Shown: piece by piece, positions 1 to 8,066 of the stretch
Position numbering within the stretch: the stretch's first letter is position 1
How the letters are laid out: each line of letters begins with the position of its first letter
DNA from: a virus
Lineage: Duplodnaviria > Heunggongvirae > Uroviricota > Caudoviricetes
IMG/VR virus record: IMGVR_UViG_2711768053_000014
Coordinates: 1 to 36,325 of that record
DNA: 36,325 nt
Direction: 5' to 3' (one strand)
Made by a program: the position numbers and the translations under genes
The notes under the pieces: model-generated
What the model was told of the DNA's origin: nothing
Databases searched by the model: none
The model's input: only the letters and a program-made list of their open reading frames with translations

Positions 1-707
1 ACTCTGAATAGCTTGGTGTTTAGGCGCTTTTTTGCGCGCTTATTCAGGAATCTGATGTAGCGATACTGATTAAATTTGTGTACCACGGCCCGCTCCTTAT
101 TAGCCCGTAAATACTCGCCTCGTTGTCCTCCGCGCTTAATCGCGTTCATCGTTATCTCGTGATACCACTCGCCGTCCAGTTCGTAGAACTTGCTTTCGTG
201 GCTGCCTATAAAATCAAAATTCGACGCCTGATATACCACGCCAGCACGTCCGCAGCGTTCGTCTGCAAAGGACTGAACCCACTCCACTGACGGGTACAGT
301 AACCTGATGGTTTTCAGCGCGTAGCTGATGGCCCGTGATTCAGAGTTGCGGGGCATGTCGTCGTGTAGCCACATGCGGTTCAGTTCCATATAGCCCCGGT
401 TATCCGTTTCAAGCACGACCCGACGCCCTGAGTTGGGGTTAAGGGCATATCCCCACTGAAGAACGCCAACCAGATCACGTCCGCTGAATACGCCCAGATG
501 CAGGTAGGAGTTATTCACAAAACGGCGGGAATAGTGCTTTGTCTGAATGATTGTGCGGGCCAGCCAGCAGGATATGGTTTCAACGCGCAGCTCCTTTGAA
601 CCATAGCCGACAATCCGGTCTTCATACTCAATAACGCAGGGTTTTGTCAGAATGCGTGATTTCTTCTCTTTTCCCACAATACAGCTCCGTGGGATGCTCT
701 TTGGCAT
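1..707 (-). CDS. mom: DNA modification protein Mom (partial, C-terminus beyond window start)
   Basis: Open frame with no stop from the ATG at 707 to the window edge (not in ORF track because no stop in window); translation ...[51 protein letters not shown]... reads as Mu Mom; overlaps the 3-prime end of com in another frame as in Mu. Exact start uncertain (ATG at 707 or a downstream alternative start). Confidence 0.8.
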
Positions 708-813
708 TCGATATGACAATGTAACGTTTACAGCGAGGGCATTTAATTTCTATATGCTTAAAACCTCCTTTAAACAGTAATTTATTGCAGTTTTTACAGC
801 GAACAGAGTCCAT
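628..813 (-). CDS. com: Com, zinc-finger translational activator of mom
   Basis: ORF track 628..840; CxxC...CxxC motif ([10 protein letters not shown]...IKCPRCKRY) and close resemblance to Mu Com; the second in-frame ATG (813) has an AGGGGGA Shine-Dalgarno and gives 61 aa, close to the ~62 aa I recall for Mu Com; sits directly upstream of and overlapping mom. Confidence 0.8.
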
Positions 814-840
814 GATTCCCCCTGTGTAATAATCAGACAT

Positions 841-936
841 GAGCGCCCGGAGGGCTGGGGGTATTTAATCACAACCGATGCAAACCGACGATCGATATGA
901 TGCTATCGATCGTCATAAACTATACAAACTGATTAT
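841..936 (-). promoter_or_regulatory. Candidate mom-operon promoter/regulatory region with Dam-site inverted repeat
   Basis: Intergenic between the chaperone stop (937) and com; perfect 11-bp inverted repeat GACGATCGATA-(6 nt)-TATCGATCGTC at ~887..914 holding two GATC sites. Mu's mom promoter is regulated through upstream GATC methylation (established knowledge); assignment here is by position and motif only. Confidence 0.5.
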
Positions 937-1512
937 TTAATCACCGACAGTTAACGCTCTCACCTCGTCCAGTATGGACAGCCGGGAAAGCTGCTCCTTC
1001 ATTTCACGCTGGCGCTGATAAATCCCGTCATTGCGATCGAGCTGCGCCTGCGCCATTGCTACCGCCAGTTCTTCCAGTTCCGACATTGACAGTTTCACCT
1101 GTTGATTATTGGCGTCACCCCACGCAAGGGCGGTTCTTGCCGTATCGGATTTCGCCGCCATTACTACCGGATAAAGACGGGCCAGTGAGTCGGGGCCAGC
1201 ATTCCAGGGGCGGCCGTTCCATTCGAACGTGAACGGCTGCGCCTCCTGTTCTGTGCGCCACGCCTCGATTTCCATCTTTTTGGCATCTTTTGCCGCTGCG
1301 ATAAGTTCAGGCGTGACTGTAAACGGGGCGATTTCACCCCATTTGCCGCTCTGTAACTCTTCCCAGATGCGCTGGCCTGTCATTGCGGTATCATCCTGCA
1401 TGGCGGTATACGGGACGAATTCCGTTTCACCTTCAAATAACACCTCGCAGTCAACCGCACCATTTTCGAGATAATGGGCATTTCTGATGCCTTTTATCGC
1501 TCTGATTTTCAT
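937..1512 (-). CDS. Putative tail fibre assembly/chaperone protein (by position downstream of fibre gene)
   Basis: 191-aa ORF immediately downstream of the 1035-aa fibre gene; no recognisable similarity to lambda Tfa from memory, so the call rests on synteny. Confidence 0.4.
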   Translation of the reverse strand: MKIRAIKGIRNAHYLENGAVDCEVLFEGETEFVPYTAMQDDTAMTGQRIWEELQSGKWGEIAPFTVTPELIAAAKDAKKMEIEAWRTEQEAQPFTFEWNGRPWNAGPDSLARLYPVVMAAKSDTARTALAWGDANNQQVKLSMSELEELAVAMAQAQLDRNDGIYQRQREMKEQLSRLSILDEVRALTVGD

Positions 1513-1526
1513 GTCTTATTTCCCCG

Positions 1527-4500
1527 TTACTCGATACGCACAAAAAGACCAATATAGCCACGTTTTGTATCGTGATTACTGCGTGACCCCGAAAGCGCCA
1601 TATAACGACCGGGAAAGTTGTATGCACTGGCACCACCAATTGCCACTTGCGGTGTGGATACGTATGTCCCTGTATCGCTAACTGAAGCACTCATAGCCAG
1701 AGGGCCAAGACGGGAACCCGGCACAATATCACCGAGTCCCAGAGACACATCAGCACCAAAACTTTCCCCCTGATATGCCGCCATAACCGGCACACCAACT
1801 GCCGGATATTTGTAATATGAGCCTGAGCCTGCTGTCCGGGAGAGTAAGAACGCCAGCGAATCGCCGTCGTAAATGACAGGGCTTACTGTTGCATTCCAGT
1901 TGTTTCCACTCCAGCGGTAAGTCAGGCGATGAATGCTGTGTTCGCCTTCGTAATACTGGTTAAAACACAGCAACGTTTTGAATTTACGCGTTGTGTCCGA
2001 TTCATCGTTATCAAAGGGCGACCACATCACATCAATGATGCCGTTAAATTTCGTGGTGCCAGCCAGCAGCGTGGAAGAGTCCGCAATACTGACCGCATAA
2101 CGCCCCGGGGTGGCCTCTTTCAGCCATTCAGCAAAATCAGCCTGTCCGGTAAATGTCAGGGCGTCGGTGCTGGCAAATGCCTGACCGAATCCGTACATGC
2201 CGGACAGTGCCAGTCTGCCCGGCGTGCGGTCGCGGATATCGCTCTGGGGTTCCATCGTAGCAGCCGCTTTCAGTTCAAGCTCCGTGCGCATGGCTTCAGG
2301 TGTGTCCAGTGCCAGTAATGCGCGGGCTTTTTCTGACAACTGCGCCAGTAAAATCCTGCCATCTGCACTGAAATAAGGCAGTGTATTTTCTTCCGGTGTT
2401 ATCTGGCTGACAGCCGTTAACACGTCATTAAGCGGCTGTTTACCTGCCAGTGCATTAGTGACGGTTGTCGCAAAGTTCGGGTCATTGCCCAGTGCCGATG
2501 CCAGCTCGTTCAGTGTGTCCAGGGCTTCCGGTGATGAGCCAACCAGCGCGGCAAGCAGTTTGCGGACAAACTCCGCATTGGCTATTTCATTACCTGCTGC
2601 ATCATCCGGTGGTGTTGGCGTGGACGGCGTTCCGGTCAGTGCCGGGCTGTTCAGTGGCGCGCGGGTTTCAATCAGTGCCCGGAGTGAAGCCTCGTTGACT
2701 TTCAGGTTTTCCCAGCCAACCAGATAACCATCTCCGGTAGTCCAGTAGCGATTGTAATAAATATGGCCGTTAATACCGTAAAAAATAATGATTTTGGCCA
2801 CATATGCCGGATTGGGATTGGGTTGAGATTCCGGCCAGATAATTTCAACGGTACCCTTGAACAGCACGCCCTGTATTACCGCATTTGTATCTGCATAAAC
2901 GGCATAGCGTCCGGGTTTTGCCGTTTTTACCCAGCGGAGAAAATCGGCCTCTGTTTTAAACTCGGTCCTGTCGCCGCTGGAAAATACTTTCCCGAATCCA
3001 AACATGCCGGGAATCGCCAGTCGACCTTCGGTGCGGTCGTAAATATTCTCCTGTGCATCCTTCTGTGCTGCATTGCCAAGTTGTAGCGTCAGATTCGTCC
3101 AGGTGACCGGGGCGGAGATATTATCGCCACGAACGGTCATGAGAATCCGTCCGTCTTTTCCAAAAAACAGAACCAGCTTTGTTGCTGTCTGGCTTGTTTT
3201 GTCGCCCCAGCCATTATCCAGCCAGATAATTTCTGTTATTCCGGTCGTCTCTTCCGTTTGTGTGGAAAAGGTGTAATACCGTCCCGGGTGCAGGTTGTGC
3301 GCAGTTCTGGCTACAGTCGCCATATCGCTGGCAATAATTGAACGCGCTCCGGCGTCCGTCATTCCGTAACCAAATGCACCAGGCAGCGCAACACGGCCTT
3401 CCGAGCTGTCGTAAAGGTCTGTCTGAATGTCCCTTACCGCTGCGCTTTTCAGCTCAAGCTCATTGCGCATGGTTTCCACTGTGGCCTGTGCCAGCAGTGA
3501 CCGGGCTTTTTCTGACAGTGGAGACAGTGAAGCATTTCCGTCCTGATTAAAGCACAGAAGATTATCTGCCCGTTCTTCCAGATTACTGATTGCGGTTAAC
3601 ACGTCACTGAGTGGTTGTTTACCCGCCAGCGCGTTAATGACCGTCGTCGAAAAGTTCGGATCATTGCCCAGCGCAGCTGCCAGCTCGTTCAGTGTGTCCA
3701 GGGTTTCCGGTGACGAGTCAACCAGTGCGGCGAGCAGTTTGCGGACAAATGCCGCGTTCGCTGTTTCCAGACCGGCAGCATCGTCCGGTGGAGTTGGTGT
3801 GGTGGGCGTACCTGTGAACGCCGGACTGTCCAGCGGCGCTTTTGTTTTCGTCTCGTCCATGACGGTTTTAACAGCCTTTGGTGTGGCTGCCAGTTCTTCG
3901 CTGTCGTTGTCTGTATCACTACAGAGTTGCACCAGGCCTTTTTCTGTTGTGGATGCATTGCTTCCCTTCAGGTCATCAACTATCCGTTGCGCCTCGTCCC
4001 TGTGCTGTTTCGCGTTCTGTTCGCTTTTTGCTGCCGCTTCGGCGCTGGCTTTTGCCTCGCCGGTCAGCGTTGCGGCATCAGCAAGTTTATCGACCGCTTT
4101 CTGGACTATCTTATCGGCATCTTTGACCGCCTGTTCTGCCCGGGCGGCATTCTGGTTTGTTTCAGAGGCCAGCTCTTCAGCTTTCTGCACATTACCCGCA
4201 ATTTCTTCTGCATCCTGCCGTATTTCCCCTGCGAGGGTTTCTGTATCCTGGCGGGCCTGTTCAGCAGCGTCCGCGTGCTCTCCGGCTTTTTCTGCGCTTT
4301 GCTGCGCCTGTTGCGCCAGTTCCTCGAATTTCTTCAGGGCTTCCGGGCGCAGGTCAATATCGGTTGCGCCCAGAAAATCATTCAGCGAACCATCCGCTGA
4401 ATCTTCATAAACGCGGATGACACCGATTTCTGAAAGGCGCTGTGTGCTTTGTGTCAGGCGAACGCTGTACACACCCGGCAGAACGGGGAAGTCATATTCC

Positions 4501-4634
4501 CCGTTCTGTGTGGTGACATGGCTGAAAACACTTTTCAGAATCCCTGCACGGTTGTGCAGGGAGGTCAGTGTAATGGTTGCGCCGCCCAGCGGTTCTCCCG
4601 TGGGCGTTTTAATCACACCTTTAAGCTGCGGCAT
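1527..4634 (-). CDS. Side-tail-fibre-like protein (lambda Stf family), 1035 aa, with internal duplication
   Basis: N-terminus (...IRVYEDSADGSLNDFL...) and the collar block (KGLVQLCSDTDNDSEELAATPKAVKTVMDETKTKAPLDSPAFTGTP...LDTLNELAAALGNDPNFSTTVINALAGKQP) resemble lambda Stf as I recall it; the collar block occurs twice in the protein (about aa 255-345 and 630-715). Confidence 0.8.
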   Translation of the reverse strand: MPQLKGVIKTPTGEPLGGATITLTSLHNRAGILKSVFSHVTTQNGEYDFPVLPGVYSVRLTQSTQRLSEIGVIRVYEDSADGSLNDFLGATDIDLRPEALKKFEELAQQAQQSAEKAGEHADAAEQARQDTETLAGEIRQDAEEIAGNVQKAEELASETNQNAARAEQAVKDADKIVQKAVDKLADAATLTGEAKASAEAAAKSEQNAKQHRDEAQRIVDDLKGSNASTTEKGLVQLCSDTDNDSEELAATPKAVKTVMDETKTKAPLDSPAFTGTPTTPTPPDDAAGLETANAAFVRKLLAALVDSSPETLDTLNELAAALGNDPNFSTTVINALAGKQPLSDVLTAISNLEERADNLLCFNQDGNASLSPLSEKARSLLAQATVETMRNELELKSAAVRDIQTDLYDSSEGRVALPGAFGYGMTDAGARSIIASDMATVARTAHNLHPGRYYTFSTQTEETTGITEIIWLDNGWGDKTSQTATKLVLFFGKDGRILMTVRGDNISAPVTWTNLTLQLGNAAQKDAQENIYDRTEGRLAIPGMFGFGKVFSSGDRTEFKTEADFLRWVKTAKPGRYAVYADTNAVIQGVLFKGTVEIIWPESQPNPNPAYVAKIIIFYGINGHIYYNRYWTTGDGYLVGWENLKVNEASLRALIETRAPLNSPALTGTPSTPTPPDDAAGNEIANAEFVRKLLAALVGSSPEALDTLNELASALGNDPNFATTVTNALAGKQPLNDVLTAVSQITPEENTLPYFSADGRILLAQLSEKARALLALDTPEAMRTELELKAAATMEPQSDIRDRTPGRLALSGMYGFGQAFASTDALTFTGQADFAEWLKEATPGRYAVSIADSSTLLAGTTKFNGIIDVMWSPFDNDESDTTRKFKTLLCFNQYYEGEHSIHRLTYRWSGNNWNATVSPVIYDGDSLAFLLSRTAGSGSYYKYPAVGVPVMAAYQGESFGADVSLGLGDIVPGSRLGPLAMSASVSDTGTYVSTPQVAIGGASAYNFPGRYMALSGSRSNHDTKRGYIGLFVRIE
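2400..2680. repeat. Intragenic direct repeat copy A (~270 bp) within the Stf-like gene
   Basis: About 85-90% identical by eye to 3585..3860; both encode the APL(D/N)SPA(F/L)TGTP...NELA(A/S)ALGNDPNF...ALAGKQP segment; the paired plus-strand artefact ORFs 2458..2727 and 3637..4410 start with near-identical peptides. Confidence 0.7.
3585..3860. repeat. Intragenic direct repeat copy B (~270 bp) within the Stf-like gene
   Basis: See copy A (2400..2680). Confidence 0.7.
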
Positions 4635-5187
4635 CGGGACGCTCCGGCCAGTTGATGGAGTAAAAGGAGGCTTCGTCAGTAACGGTGCTTAAATCCAGTG
4701 CCTTTACCGCTTTGATATATGCCATCCACTGCGTAAGACGGGCTTTATCATCGTCGCTGATGGTGCCCAGCTCCAGCTCGGTTTTCCAGTCGGAGGTGAT
4801 GTCCTTCGCTTCATTCAGCATGCTCTGGCGTTTTTTTTCTGCCAGTCGCGAGTAATCAACAGGAACCGGCAGCACTTCGCCGTCTTTGTAATACCAGCAG
4901 GCTTCAATGCCAAAACCTTCCGGCAGTTCATCCACTTCCACAATGGTGAAGCCAGCCGGATAAAGACGGGACACGTCTTCCGCCATTGAATAAATCACGC
5001 CGCTTTCAGGGTGAATACACAATTTGTATTTCTTCGTGAATTTATCCAGTGATTCATAAAAATCCTGTCCGTCTTCACTGCGGAAATACTGAATATCCTT
5101 ACCATAAGGCATATTTTCCGGGTAATAACGCGTGACGTTTCTGAGTTCCATTATTTTCTCCTTAATTAACCTGATACGGTGCGCCAT
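4621..5187 (-). CDS. Tail fibre assembly protein (Tfa / Mu U-like)
   Basis: 188-aa ORF directly after a fibre gene, with a Tfa-like C-terminal region (...DKARLTQWMAYIKAVKALDLSTV...WPERP); true start may be the internal Met at ~5151 just after the upstream stop. Confidence 0.7.
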   Translation of the reverse strand: MAHRIRLIKEKIMELRNVTRYYPENMPYGKDIQYFRSEDGQDFYESLDKFTKKYKLCIHPESGVIYSMAEDVSRLYPAGFTIVEVDELPEGFGIEACWYYKDGEVLPVPVDYSRLAEKKRQSMLNEAKDITSDWKTELELGTISDDDKARLTQWMAYIKAVKALDLSTVTDEASFYSINWPERPDAAA

Positions 5188-5975
5188 GAACCATTGATAT
5201 AAATCTGCGCGGATTTGTAATACACACCACCGATGTTATCCGCCGAACTTCTCCCCGTATCCTGGACATAAATTCCTGACAACTGACAGCCGGAAGGCGC
5301 GCGAAACGTCCAGGTGATTTCGTTGCCACCGGGATTGTGAAACACCTCATTGGTGTACTGAAAATTACGCACAGCGCCGGAATCTGTGGTGTTGATGGTG
5401 ATATCGCTGGTGCCATCAAACAGCACATTGTTAATCCTGCGGGCCGTCTGAAGCCGGGTTGCCGTTCCGGCGTTGCCACTGATGTTGCTGATGGTGATAT
5501 CCGAAGACAGGGCCATGCCGTTGACCCTGCGGGTATTCGGTACAGCACTATTAGCTTTATTTACCGTGTCACGTAATAAAAGCGCGTCGATAATTTCACC
5601 GGCTGTGTTTTTCCCGAGAATACCGCGCACAAAAGCACTGAGCGGCGTTAATGCCATTGTGTCTTCGCCGGTAAAGTACGGGAATGTATTATTCTGACCG
5701 GTTAATCCGGCAATAGCACTGGCTGAACCACTGTTCGTAATAAACAGTTTTTTCAGCGCCGTCATAATCTGGTTGGTGGTATTTTTATCCGGTTTGATAT
5801 TTGCCTGCCGGAGAATTTCCAGCAGTTCAGACTGAATAATATTAAACCAGTCCGGCCCCGGATAAGTGGGCGGAATACCATTCCCGCCTTCGGTGAAATA
5901 AAGCGTTGTTTTGCTTAATTCAGCCGCGACAGGTGGCATTACCGGCACACCCGTCGGATTATCCACATGAAACAT
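5166..5975 (-). CDS. Tail fibre protein (short, Mu S-like position)
   Basis: 269-aa ORF between the baseplate genes and a Tfa-type chaperone; Ser/Thr/Gly/Asn-rich fibre-like composition (...DITISNISGNAGTATRLQTARRINNVLFDGTSDITINTTDSG...). Confidence 0.6.
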   Translation of the reverse strand: MFHVDNPTGVPVMPPVAAELSKTTLYFTEGGNGIPPTYPGPDWFNIIQSELLEILRQANIKPDKNTTNQIMTALKKLFITNSGSASAIAGLTGQNNTFPYFTGEDTMALTPLSAFVRGILGKNTAGEIIDALLLRDTVNKANSAVPNTRRVNGMALSSDITISNISGNAGTATRLQTARRINNVLFDGTSDITINTTDSGAVRNFQYTNEVFHNPGGNEITWTFRAPSGCQLSGIYVQDTGRSSADNIGGVYYKSAQIYINGSWRTVSG

Positions 5976-5978
5976 AAA

Positions 5979-6563
5979 CTATTCTCCGGTGTAATAATAT
6001 TCATATTCCGTGCCCGCCAGTCGGTAATGCTTCAGCAGGCATTCCAGCTCGCGGGTGCGTTCGCTGATTAATGGCGTCATGACGTCATCAATACAGGTAA
6101 ACCGTCCGGCATCTTTGTCCGGGACTTCCACTTTCAGCAGCCAGCGATACCGCGCCGGATGCAGCGGGTACATGCAGTCACGCAGGCAGTGGTGCGGCAG
6201 AACGGCCGTCACCTTAATGGTGAAGCCCAGCGCCGCCGCAGCGGCTTCAATCTGCCAGGTTGCCAGCCCACCCTTGCGGCGGTATTTCTCCACCACGGCC
6301 CGGCGGCGGGCTTCCGTTGTGGTGGCGGCAATTCCGCATTCCGGCAGCGCCAGATATTGCTCCCACTCCGGCAGCAGCTGGAGCGTGGTTTCCGGTCGCA
6401 TCTCCACATGCAGGCGCGAGGCGTCGTATTCAACGCGGGTTAAACGCTCTGCAAGCGCCCTTAAAAAACGGTTTAAATCTGCATCGTTATCACGCGGCCA
6501 TGCCTTACCCCGTGGCATGACCTGTTGCAGTGCGGTCAGCCATTCCGTCACGCTGTGAGCCAT
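5979..6563 (-). CDS. Tail/baseplate protein (Mu gp48-like)
   Basis: 194-aa ORF in a tightly packed minus-strand operon between the baseplate J-like gene and the fibre gene; Mu gp48-like by position. Confidence 0.6.
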   Translation of the reverse strand: MAHSVTEWLTALQQVMPRGKAWPRDNDADLNRFLRALAERLTRVEYDASRLHVEMRPETTLQLLPEWEQYLALPECGIAATTTEARRRAVVEKYRRKGGLATWQIEAAAAALGFTIKVTAVLPHHCLRDCMYPLHPARYRWLLKVEVPDKDAGRFTCIDDVMTPLISERTRELECLLKHYRLAGTEYEYYYTGE

Positions 6564-7624
6564 GTCACCTCCCCGATGGTGATAAGCTCATCCACATCAC
6601 TGGTGGTGTCTTCCCCGATGTTGAGGAAGTAATCCGTGATACCGGACGTCATACCGATGGCCGTGCGCAGCGAGGACACCGGCAGCATCTGACCGGGGGC
6701 CAGCGTTTTCTGTAATGCGGTCAGGTTTGCCCGGACGGCGTTCCTGTTCGCCTGGCTGTCCGGTGTCAGACGGATGGACAGATCGACTTTCTTCAGCCTG
6801 ACCTGTACCGGCCAGACCTCGATGCCGCCCGGTTTGCCCACCATCACGCCCGTGGCCGGGTGTTTGTGACAGAACAGATACTGCTCCATTGTCTTCAGGT
6901 CGTCCCGTGTGGGGATAATGTCTTCACGGTCATCATAAAGCCATGCCAGCCCGATCGTGCCGGGGCCGTGCCACGCATCCCACGCCCACGCGCGGCTGAC
7001 GCCCGGCACTTCACGCGCCCAGATGACGTAATCATGTAGTGCACCGCCCACCGGGGGATTGCGGCGCACATACAGCAGACGGTCCAGCAGCTCTGCGATG
7101 GATTCGATGTCTGCGCCACCGGTGATGCCACTTTCAGTCACCGCGCCGGTGCTGCCCGTTCCGGGTAGCGGGGACAACAGAGTGAGCACGGCACCGGCAG
7201 CAAGATTGCCCGCCACACCGGCTTCTTCAGCCTGCACGATGACGGTGACCTCGCCGTCCTGTACCTCGCCGGATGTGAGTACCTGATACACCTGATTCGT
7301 GTCGGACTGCATCCGGGTTTCTGCCGGAATGGGGGACTGACTGGTGAAGGTCACCGGCCCGCTGGCAAAGGTGGCCTGCTTGCGGATAACCCCTTCATAC
7401 GTTGCTGTTTTGATAATGGTTTCATCATCAGACATGGTGGACGGGATTATCTGGTCCTTAATCCAGCTCTGATGGTCGTATAAATCCCGGACCTGACTGC
7501 TGAATGACACGTTCAGCGCCTGCTCAATACTGACAGGCGGCAGCTTTTGCAGGCCGAGTTCATACGCAATATCTTTTTCGCCGTCGGCAATCAGTTTGCC
7601 CAGCGTGGGGATTTCATACGGCAT
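6548..7624 (-). CDS. Baseplate J-like protein (Mu gp47-like)
   Basis: ORF track 6548..7657; size, position and operon context fit a baseplate J-family protein; start trimmed to the internal Met at 7624, which reduces overlap with the upstream gene. Confidence 0.7.
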   Translation of the reverse strand: MPYEIPTLGKLIADGEKDIAYELGLQKLPPVSIEQALNVSFSSQVRDLYDHQSWIKDQIIPSTMSDDETIIKTATYEGVIRKQATFASGPVTFTSQSPIPAETRMQSDTNQVYQVLTSGEVQDGEVTVIVQAEEAGVAGNLAAGAVLTLLSPLPGTGSTGAVTESGITGGADIESIAELLDRLLYVRRNPPVGGALHDYVIWAREVPGVSRAWAWDAWHGPGTIGLAWLYDDREDIIPTRDDLKTMEQYLFCHKHPATGVMVGKPGGIEVWPVQVRLKKVDLSIRLTPDSQANRNAVRANLTALQKTLAPGQMLPVSSLRTAIGMTSGITDYFLNIGEDTTSDVDELITIGEVTWLTA

Positions 7625-8066
7625 TAATGGTGGCCTCCCATCGGCGGGTGATTTCAATTGTGAGCGTGGTTTTGTCCGGGCGGGTTAACACCACCTGAAA
7701 GGCAATACGGTCAGGGACGATGATGCTGGCCGTGACGGTGGCGTTACGGGCGTAACCGGCCCGCAGCAGCGGTTGCATGGACAGCCGCGCGTAATCTTCC
7801 ACACGCAGGCGGACATCTTCCGTCAGCTTTTCACGCTCAAGCAGCCACAGGCGGGAACCCCACGAAAAATCGCTGTACGTGTCGCCCGGCCAGCCGCGCG
7901 GGTCGCCAGAGCCGTCAGGAATGACATCATCGTCATCAGCACGGGCATCGGTGAAAAGGCAGATAAGAACCTGAGTGACCAGCCCCTCATCCAGTGAGAG
8001 GCCGTTATGGGTGACGGTGATGTCACCCCGTGAGAGCATGTTATTCCAGCGGATTCCTGTCGTCAT
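7614..8066 (-). CDS. Baseplate protein (Mu gp46-like)
   Basis: 150-aa ORF with overlapping stop/start coupling to its neighbours inside the baseplate cluster. Confidence 0.65.
   Translation of the reverse strand: MTTGIRWNNMLSRGDITVTHNGLSLDEGLVTQVLICLFTDARADDDDVIPDGSGDPRGWPGDTYSDFSWGSRLWLLEREKLTEDVRLRVEDYARLSMQPLLRAGYARNATVTASIIVPDRIAFQVVLTRPDKTTLTIEITRRWEATINAV

Follow-up and report, generated by a model that had tools for sequence, protein, structure and literature searches.

Fibre gene and genomic setting

The window, meaning the whole stretch of 36,325 nucleotides that was analysed, contains a complete Mu-like prophage in which MuA, MuB, the Mu portal, the sheath, baseplate J, gp48 and Com are present; Mom is truncated by the start of the window. 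An Stf-like tail-fibre gene occupies positions 1527..4634 on the minus strand. It is uninterrupted over 1035 codons in the ORF list of the window, and a protein 100% identical to its 1035-residue product, an E. coli prophage tail fibre, is recorded independently at NCBI. According to the ORF list, Pfam and our module profiles, the protein consists of an N-terminal anchor (N), a coil, a Phage_fiber_2 repeat, a first collar (C1), two knob domains (D1 and D2), a second collar (C2), a third knob domain (D3) and a tip (T). The protein is presumed to form a trimer.

The anchor (aa 1-130; 4245..4634, minus strand) shows a phage_tail_N / prophage tail fibre N-terminal domain (PF08400) at aa 4-129 with an E value of 6.4e-26, and in a PDB sequence search it matched a "collar spike protein" (7kjk) and a "tail fiber protein" (9e7m). 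Pfam reports this domain only once, ahead of both collars, in agreement with the single anchor that the original prediction had proposed. Behind it come a coiled-coil-like shaft rich in Ala, Glu and Gln (aa 131-227) and a single Phage_fiber_2 repeat (aa 228-262), which together span 3849..4244 on the minus strand; the Pfam match of the repeat (PF03406) covers aa 228-267 with an E value of 2.6e-15, and the Mu gpS structures 5yvq and 8ju3 match aa 215-270. Furthermore, "tail collar fibers gp4" (PDB 9d93) matches aa 260-357, in the C1 region. PDB matches did not extend beyond the anchor, the stretch with the Phage_fiber_2 repeat and a portion of the collar, with none for D or T, while no Pfam family was found over residues 396-1035 and no NCBIfam family for any part of the protein.

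Upstream of the fibre lies a 269-aa short-fibre gene, whose first 81 residues match the N-terminus of Mu gpS, directly followed by a Caudo_TAP chaperone gene (4621-5187). Directly downstream of the fibre, at 937..1512 on the minus strand, is a gene encoding a DUF4376 protein (PF14301, E value 5.8e-16), and a DUF4376 homologue is found immediately downstream of every examined fibre of the C/D/T family (loci L001-L008). DUF4376 proteins have been described as fibre chaperones in Alteromonas phages (PMC10579305), and the one encoded in the window prophage presumably acts as chaperone of the fibre tip.

Repeated collar and paralogous knob domains

A repeat search of the window found the two collars as the only direct repeat family, with copies of 254 nt at 2407-2660 and 3586-3839 that are 82% identical. 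Their start-to-start spacing of 1179 nt equals exactly 393 codons, which keeps both copies in the same reading frame. Self-comparison of the gene by blastn extended the match to 397 aligned nt with 76% identity (E value 8e-79), between gene nt 796-1188 and 1975-2367, which correspond to window positions 3447-3839 and 2268-2660; the repeat is therefore somewhat longer than had been noted before. As blastp of the whole protein against itself returned the identity hit only, the protein was split into segments, and aa 263-496 aligned with aa 656-889 at 54% identity (E value 1e-74). Both alignments confirm the claim that the collar block occurs twice in one ORF, at a similarity far above chance. 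The collar proper has 133 residues, with C1 at aa 263-395 (3450..3848) and C2 at aa 656-788 (2271..2669), both on the minus strand and both supported by the repeat search, blastn and blastp; the two are about 71-72% identical. The 85-90% DNA identity estimated by eye holds for the core, which reaches 88-90% in 60-nt windows at alignment positions 210-270, and is too high for the repeat overall. The longest perfect identity, a run of 26 nt, is located at 3678-3703 with its partner at 2499-2524 (minus strand) and encodes part of the motif TLDTLNELA. According to tblastn, the collar (APLxSPxxTGTP...LNELAxALGNDPNF...ALAGKQP) is the block common to lambda Stf, P2 gpH and Mu gpS; it is also present in Gifsy fibres, and residues 1-63 of lambda orf-314 match our home-made collar profile (7e-17). 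Many unrelated phage fibres carry the collar module in conserved form.

C1 is followed by the knob domains D1 (aa 396-525; 3060..3449) and D2 (aa 526-655; 2670..3059), and C2 by D3 (aa 789-925; 1860..2270), detected by blastp and the module profile, and by the tip T (aa 926-1035; 1530..1859), detected by the T profile and ending in GLFVRIE; all of them are encoded on the minus strand. D1, D2 and D3 are three paralogous domains of about 130 aa, with pairwise blastp E values of 1e-15 to 1e-23: D2 and D3 share 47% identity over 81 aa (E value 1e-22), and D1 and D2 share 30% (E value 6e-15). The proposal that each collar is followed by a different distal domain did not hold, since the three knobs are paralogues and the first module contains two of them. 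D1 is also 70% identical to the first D domain of gp78 from the virulent phage Av-05.

An AF2 monomer model of D3-T, built from an alignment of 25 rows, reached a mean pLDDT of 78.8. Foldseek comparison of the model with BFVD returned mainly sequence homologues. Weak structural neighbours of the model are phage receptor-binding proteins; no function could be read from the predicted D3-T fold.

Distribution, variability and age of the modules

The D profile was searched against 1.84 billion representative proteins and retrieved only 97, of which 83 were scanned with home-made N, C, D and T profiles. The commonest architectures among these 83 representatives were N-D-T and D-T (15 each), N-C-D-T (nine), D-C (seven) and C-D-T (six); the others included D-D-T, D-C-D-T, N-D-C-D-T, C-D-D-T, N-D-D-T, N-C-D-C-D-T, N-D-C-D-C-D and N-C-D-D-C-D-T. 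Collars were absent from 44 of the proteins, single in 34 and double in five. T directly followed a D in 60 of 61 cases, and the window fibre likewise ends in a T that comes straight after a D. D-C units were also found inside long fibres that have no T, as in Av-05 gp78 and Goslar gp90. In E. coli STEC1575, an intact ORF of 750 codons shows N-C1-D1-D2 joined directly to a different tip, which gives it a C-D-D-T ending; given such fibres, the first module of the window protein resembles the distal half of a real fibre.

Full-length relatives (117) were sorted into allele groups at a threshold of 85% identity. C1 and D1 were monomorphic or nearly invariant, whereas N showed five groups, D2 six, C2 seven, D3 two and T nine, and the alleles of N, D2, C2, D3 and T occurred in 54 combinations. 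T is the most variable distal module, with a mean pairwise identity of 72.5%; the value for N is lower still (66.9%), since two unrelated anchor types exist. D2 is fairly variable, with a mean identity of 79% and a minimum of 49%.

These data bear on whether both collar-led modules, C1-D1-D2 and C2-D3-T, are working receptor-binding modules, so that one fibre would recognise two surface structures. D1-D2 can be adjacent to a tip, as fibres ending in C-D1-D2-T or N-D-D-T exist; the six allele groups of D2 and its low minimum identity would fit a binding role, and the weak structural neighbours of the D3-T model point in the same direction. Nevertheless, we consider a bivalent fibre unlikely. 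T, with which all complete fibres of the family terminate, is missing from the first module, and this module therefore falls short of a full second receptor-binding half; among the 117 relatives C1 and D1 hardly vary, unlike a typical host-range determinant; and the D-C units within the T-less fibres Av-05 gp78 and Goslar gp90 fit a shaft role. Of the two receptor-binding-type modules that had been proposed, two collar-led modules are indeed present, but only the second ends in a tip. T is presumed to be the receptor-binding end, while D1-D2 would mainly lengthen or decorate the shaft.

In the full-length protein search, the N-C-D-D-C-D-T layout was present in all of the best 120 clusters (90% identity; E. 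coli, E. marmotae and Salmonella enterica), a set saturated with near-identical relatives, so that the diversity of architectures comes from the representative profile search only. Within-gene identity between C1 and C2 across these clusters ranged from 60 to 81%, with a median of 71%. The two-collar layout was also found in another Mu-like prophage, ETEC1732, and, behind a different anchor, in phage Rac-SA53 and in an E. coli W prophage adjacent to uspF/ompN. Among complete E. coli genomes, the D1-D2 cassette was present in 53 and D3-T in 65 of 5426, so this is a minority type in them. As to whether long Stf homologues universally share the internal repeat, they do within this subfamily and do not at large: lambda Stf has one collar, and no collar was detectable in K-12 StfR with our home-made profile.

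The C1 and C2 sequences of the window differ with a dS of 0.79 and a dN of 0.20, while orthologous collars, compared between the window gene and those of ETEC1732 or E. coli W, show a dS of 0.11-0.26. In addition, C1 is nearer to the single collars of other fibres (88.7% identity with SerU-LTIIb and 88.2% with pPE4) than to C2 (about 72%). Because of both results, C1 and C2 look like two alleles, old and distinct, of a module that is widely shared, and not like a fresh copy made within the gene. A recent event confined to the window prophage, either a tandem duplication within the gene or an illegitimate fusion, would be suggested by direct repeats that are in frame and spaced by an exact multiple of three, but it is extremely improbable: besides the dS values and the affinities of C1, the layout is shared by 120 of 120 best clusters, which represent three species, and recurs in Rac-SA53 together with another anchor, and homologue identities of 80-97% exclude copies of one very recent mobile prophage. 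The recent chimerism that had been suspected is contradicted by the same dS values and by the sharing of the layout throughout this subfamily. The suggestion that a second fibre 3' half was recombined in frame is sound in outline, since two collar alleles have been joined and C-D-D-T fibres do exist, but the event was not recent and the first module is tipless.

It is also very improbable that an error of sequencing or assembly is involved, or that the gene is a decaying pseudogene from which no second half is produced. PGAP flags the STEC1575 relative as a pseudogene, yet this is the intact 750-codon ORF with its own tip described above; the window ORF is itself uninterrupted and its product was recorded independently, and each of the modules compared has a dN clearly below its dS. 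Furthermore, an assembly error would hardly account for copies that differ by about 20%, or for a two-collar layout that recurs in complete genomes and also in the genome of a phage.

Recombination at the collars and comparison with known fibres

A natural pair of fibres differs by one collar-bounded unit. The fibre gp69 of pPE4 (deposited as an Actinobacillus phage) has 667 aa and the architecture N-C-D-T, and equals the Rac-SA53 fibre tail3 (1061 aa) minus one unit of 1182 nt. Positions 1-1310 of the pPE4 gene align with 1-1301 of Rac-SA53 (89.7% identity), and positions 826-2004 with 2008-3186 (95%). At the sites that separate the two Rac-SA53 collars, pPE4 reads A...A and then B...B, with a single switch near nt 950-985, in the most conserved part of the collar; the pattern is compatible with deletion and insertion alike. 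This clean single crossover inside the collar bears out the prediction that the repeats are recombination substrates. The 26-nt identity of the window sits at the place homologous to this crossover. As this is the maximum run of identical bases shared by the two window copies, RecA-driven deletion in the window prophage should be rare. The only collar of a 749-aa homologue from E. coli 06-00048 resembles C1 at its 5' end and C2 at its 3' end; with a gene about 15-20% diverged from that of the window, this apparently hybrid collar is only suggestive.

Considering the repeat, the homologies among the modules, how the architectures are distributed, how old the copies are and the crossover seen in the natural pair, it is probable that the protein is a modular fibre built like beads on a string, in which the collars are recombination joints and whose two-collar form is long established and widely distributed. 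The order from the N-terminus would be anchor, coiled-coil shaft, C1, D1, D2, C2, D3 and the variable tip, with the tip presumably folded by the downstream DUF4376 chaperone. The collar would serve both as a conserved structural joint and as a recombination joint at the DNA level: its core is so conserved in DNA that it would provide a portable joint for homologous recombination. Crossovers at collars would insert, delete or swap whole in-frame cassettes, such as the C-D1-D2 unit of 393-394 codons, and other crossovers would exchange anchors and tips; the two-collar form of the window would then be an established and widespread product of cassette insertion.

A bolder version, in which C-D1-D2 is a self-contained, horizontally mobile mid-fibre cassette that adds a second specificity or alters the reach of the fibre, and whose gain or loss in phage populations, through recombination between collars, gives a reversible switch of host range, seems to us quite doubtful. 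This version cites the 70% identity between D1 and the domain of virulent phage Av-05.

The modular fibre favoured here was compared with known systems. Lambda Stf, which works with Tfa, shares the phage_tail_N anchor and a collar block that is about 50% identical, but its single collar is accompanied by neither D nor T, and its matches cover only N and the collars. C-terminal homology to lambda Stf / T4 gp37 with a downstream Tfa was looked for in the window fibre and not found, the lambda matches ending at query residue 775. The chaperones differ as well, lambda having a Caudo_TAP-type Tfa and the window fibre a DUF4376 gene downstream, and lambda is a siphovirus whereas the window element is a Mu-like myovirus. 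The Rac-SA53 tail3 (KU052037) and the E. coli W prophage fibre are closer: both show N-C-D-D-C-D-T with a DUF4376 gene downstream, and share with the window protein 93-95% identity in C1 and 87-92% in D1. The anchor allele that they carry is another one (35-37% identity) and fits a lambdoid tail, and the distal module of Rac-SA53 is diverged from that of the window, with 79% identity in C2, 48% in D3 and 33% in T.

With the S/U genes and invertible G segment of Mu, the locus shares the fibre position between the baseplate genes and com/mom. The window ORF list shows no ORF of at least 60 aa between the DUF4376 gene and com, which leaves no room there for a gin-type invertase, and the repeat search of the window found no inverted repeats of the G type. 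In contrast with the site-specific inversion of Mu, diversity in the window would come from two co-directional fibre/chaperone pairs and homologous recombination.

Horizontal exchange and the rearrangement of motifs in fibres are old observations (Haggard-Ljungquist 1992; Sandmeier 1994, as cited in PMC3945230), and experiments have quantified the relaxed homologous recombination of lambda stf with the defective Rac and Qin prophages (PMC3945230). The RBPseg atlas describes fibre sub-domains as "permutable, insertable, or replaceable" (PMC12143355), and mobile pseudo-domains have been proposed to ease the exchange of N-terminal parts (PMC12143355; RBPseg class TC12, mobile domain D42). The window fibre agrees with these mosaic and modular fibres in that motifs are reused across unrelated phages, domains are repeated, inserted or replaced, and anchors are exchanged. 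No description of the C/D/T grammar or of the 1179-1182-nt cassette polymorphism was found in the modular-fibre literature compared; a search for literature on Rac-SA53 and PDB 9D93 yielded nothing useful, and the Nature 2024 paper on lambda-Stf engineering gave no details on junction sites.

The window fibre is a further, well-resolved example of the known mosaicism of phage fibres and no new kind of system, and its value is practical rather than conceptual. It provides a grammar of anchor, collar, knob and tip with DUF4376 for a fibre family that is unannotated past residue ~270 in Pfam and NCBIfam, and corrects database labels within the family, namely "shikimate transporter" and one false pseudogene call. 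Finally, the natural phage pair identifies the collar core as a working in-frame junction at which a cassette of 393-394 codons is added or removed, a junction that is useful for picking fusion points in fibre engineering.

Fibre and chaperone genes at the prophage end

The region occupied in Mu by the S and U genes with the invertible G segment shows, in this Mu-like prophage, two fibre/chaperone pairs transcribed in the same direction (window 937-5975, minus strand). The first pair consists of a fibre of 269 aa, whose N-terminus is of the Mu gpS type, and a Caudo_TAP chaperone, while the second consists of the Stf-type fibre (1527-4634, minus strand) and its presumed tip chaperone, a DUF4376 protein (937-1512, minus strand). 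The Stf-type gene starts within the upstream Caudo_TAP gene, whose last 14 nt it shares (4621-4634); this arrangement suggests that both fibre sets are translationally coupled. No ORF of at least 60 aa was found among the window ORFs between the DUF4376 gene and com, therefore there is no room there for a gin-type invertase, and the search of window positions 1-8000 revealed no inverted repeats of the G type. The Mom-like ORF (1-707, minus strand) overlaps com and continues past the window start, so the window opens within the last gene of the prophage.

Antisense frames and database labels

Two long antisense ORFs are found inside the Stf-type gene (2458-2727 and 3637-4410, plus strand), with near-identical starting peptides: MTVVAKFGSLPSA... 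and MTVVEKFGSLPSA..., respectively. This pair is a mere mirror of the collar repeat, the two in-frame copies carried by the fibre gene. Lambda has a comparable annotated frame, orf206b, antisense inside stf, and codon composition has probably produced all of these ORFs as by-products that do not encode proteins.

The related fibre of E. coli STEC1575 (NZ_CP116044; locus L003, 3001-5252) is labelled by PGAP as a pseudogene with a "missing C-terminus". This label is contradicted by the sequence, which has 750 open codons and its own T-type tip at the end (...GLFVRFA); furthermore, a DUF4376 gene (L003, 5253-5819) starts one base after it. The STEC1575 protein looks like an intact N-C-D1-D2-T fibre. 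Many database copies of the Stf-type fibre family, among them the protein hits P0004, P0010, P0011 and many more and the E. coli records H25, H68 and H69, carry the name "shikimate transporter", which is obviously a misannotation that has been propagated.

Fibre modules in other phages

The fibre module of "Actinobacillus phage vB_Apl-pPE4" (PP818812, locus L006) shows 90-95% DNA identity to that of E. coli phage Rac-SA53 and has the same gene order as the E. coli W prophage. This resemblance is surprising, as the stated host of pPE4 belongs to the Pasteurellaceae; either the module was transferred very recently or the host was assigned wrongly, which are two possible explanations.

A D1-D2-collar unit, two knob domains followed by a collar, is also present in gp78 of Av-05, a virulent phage of the Vequintavirinae (locus L008, 4209-5846). 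The first domain of this unit shows 70% protein identity to D1 of the prophage, which provides evidence for an exchange of modules between temperate and virulent phages.
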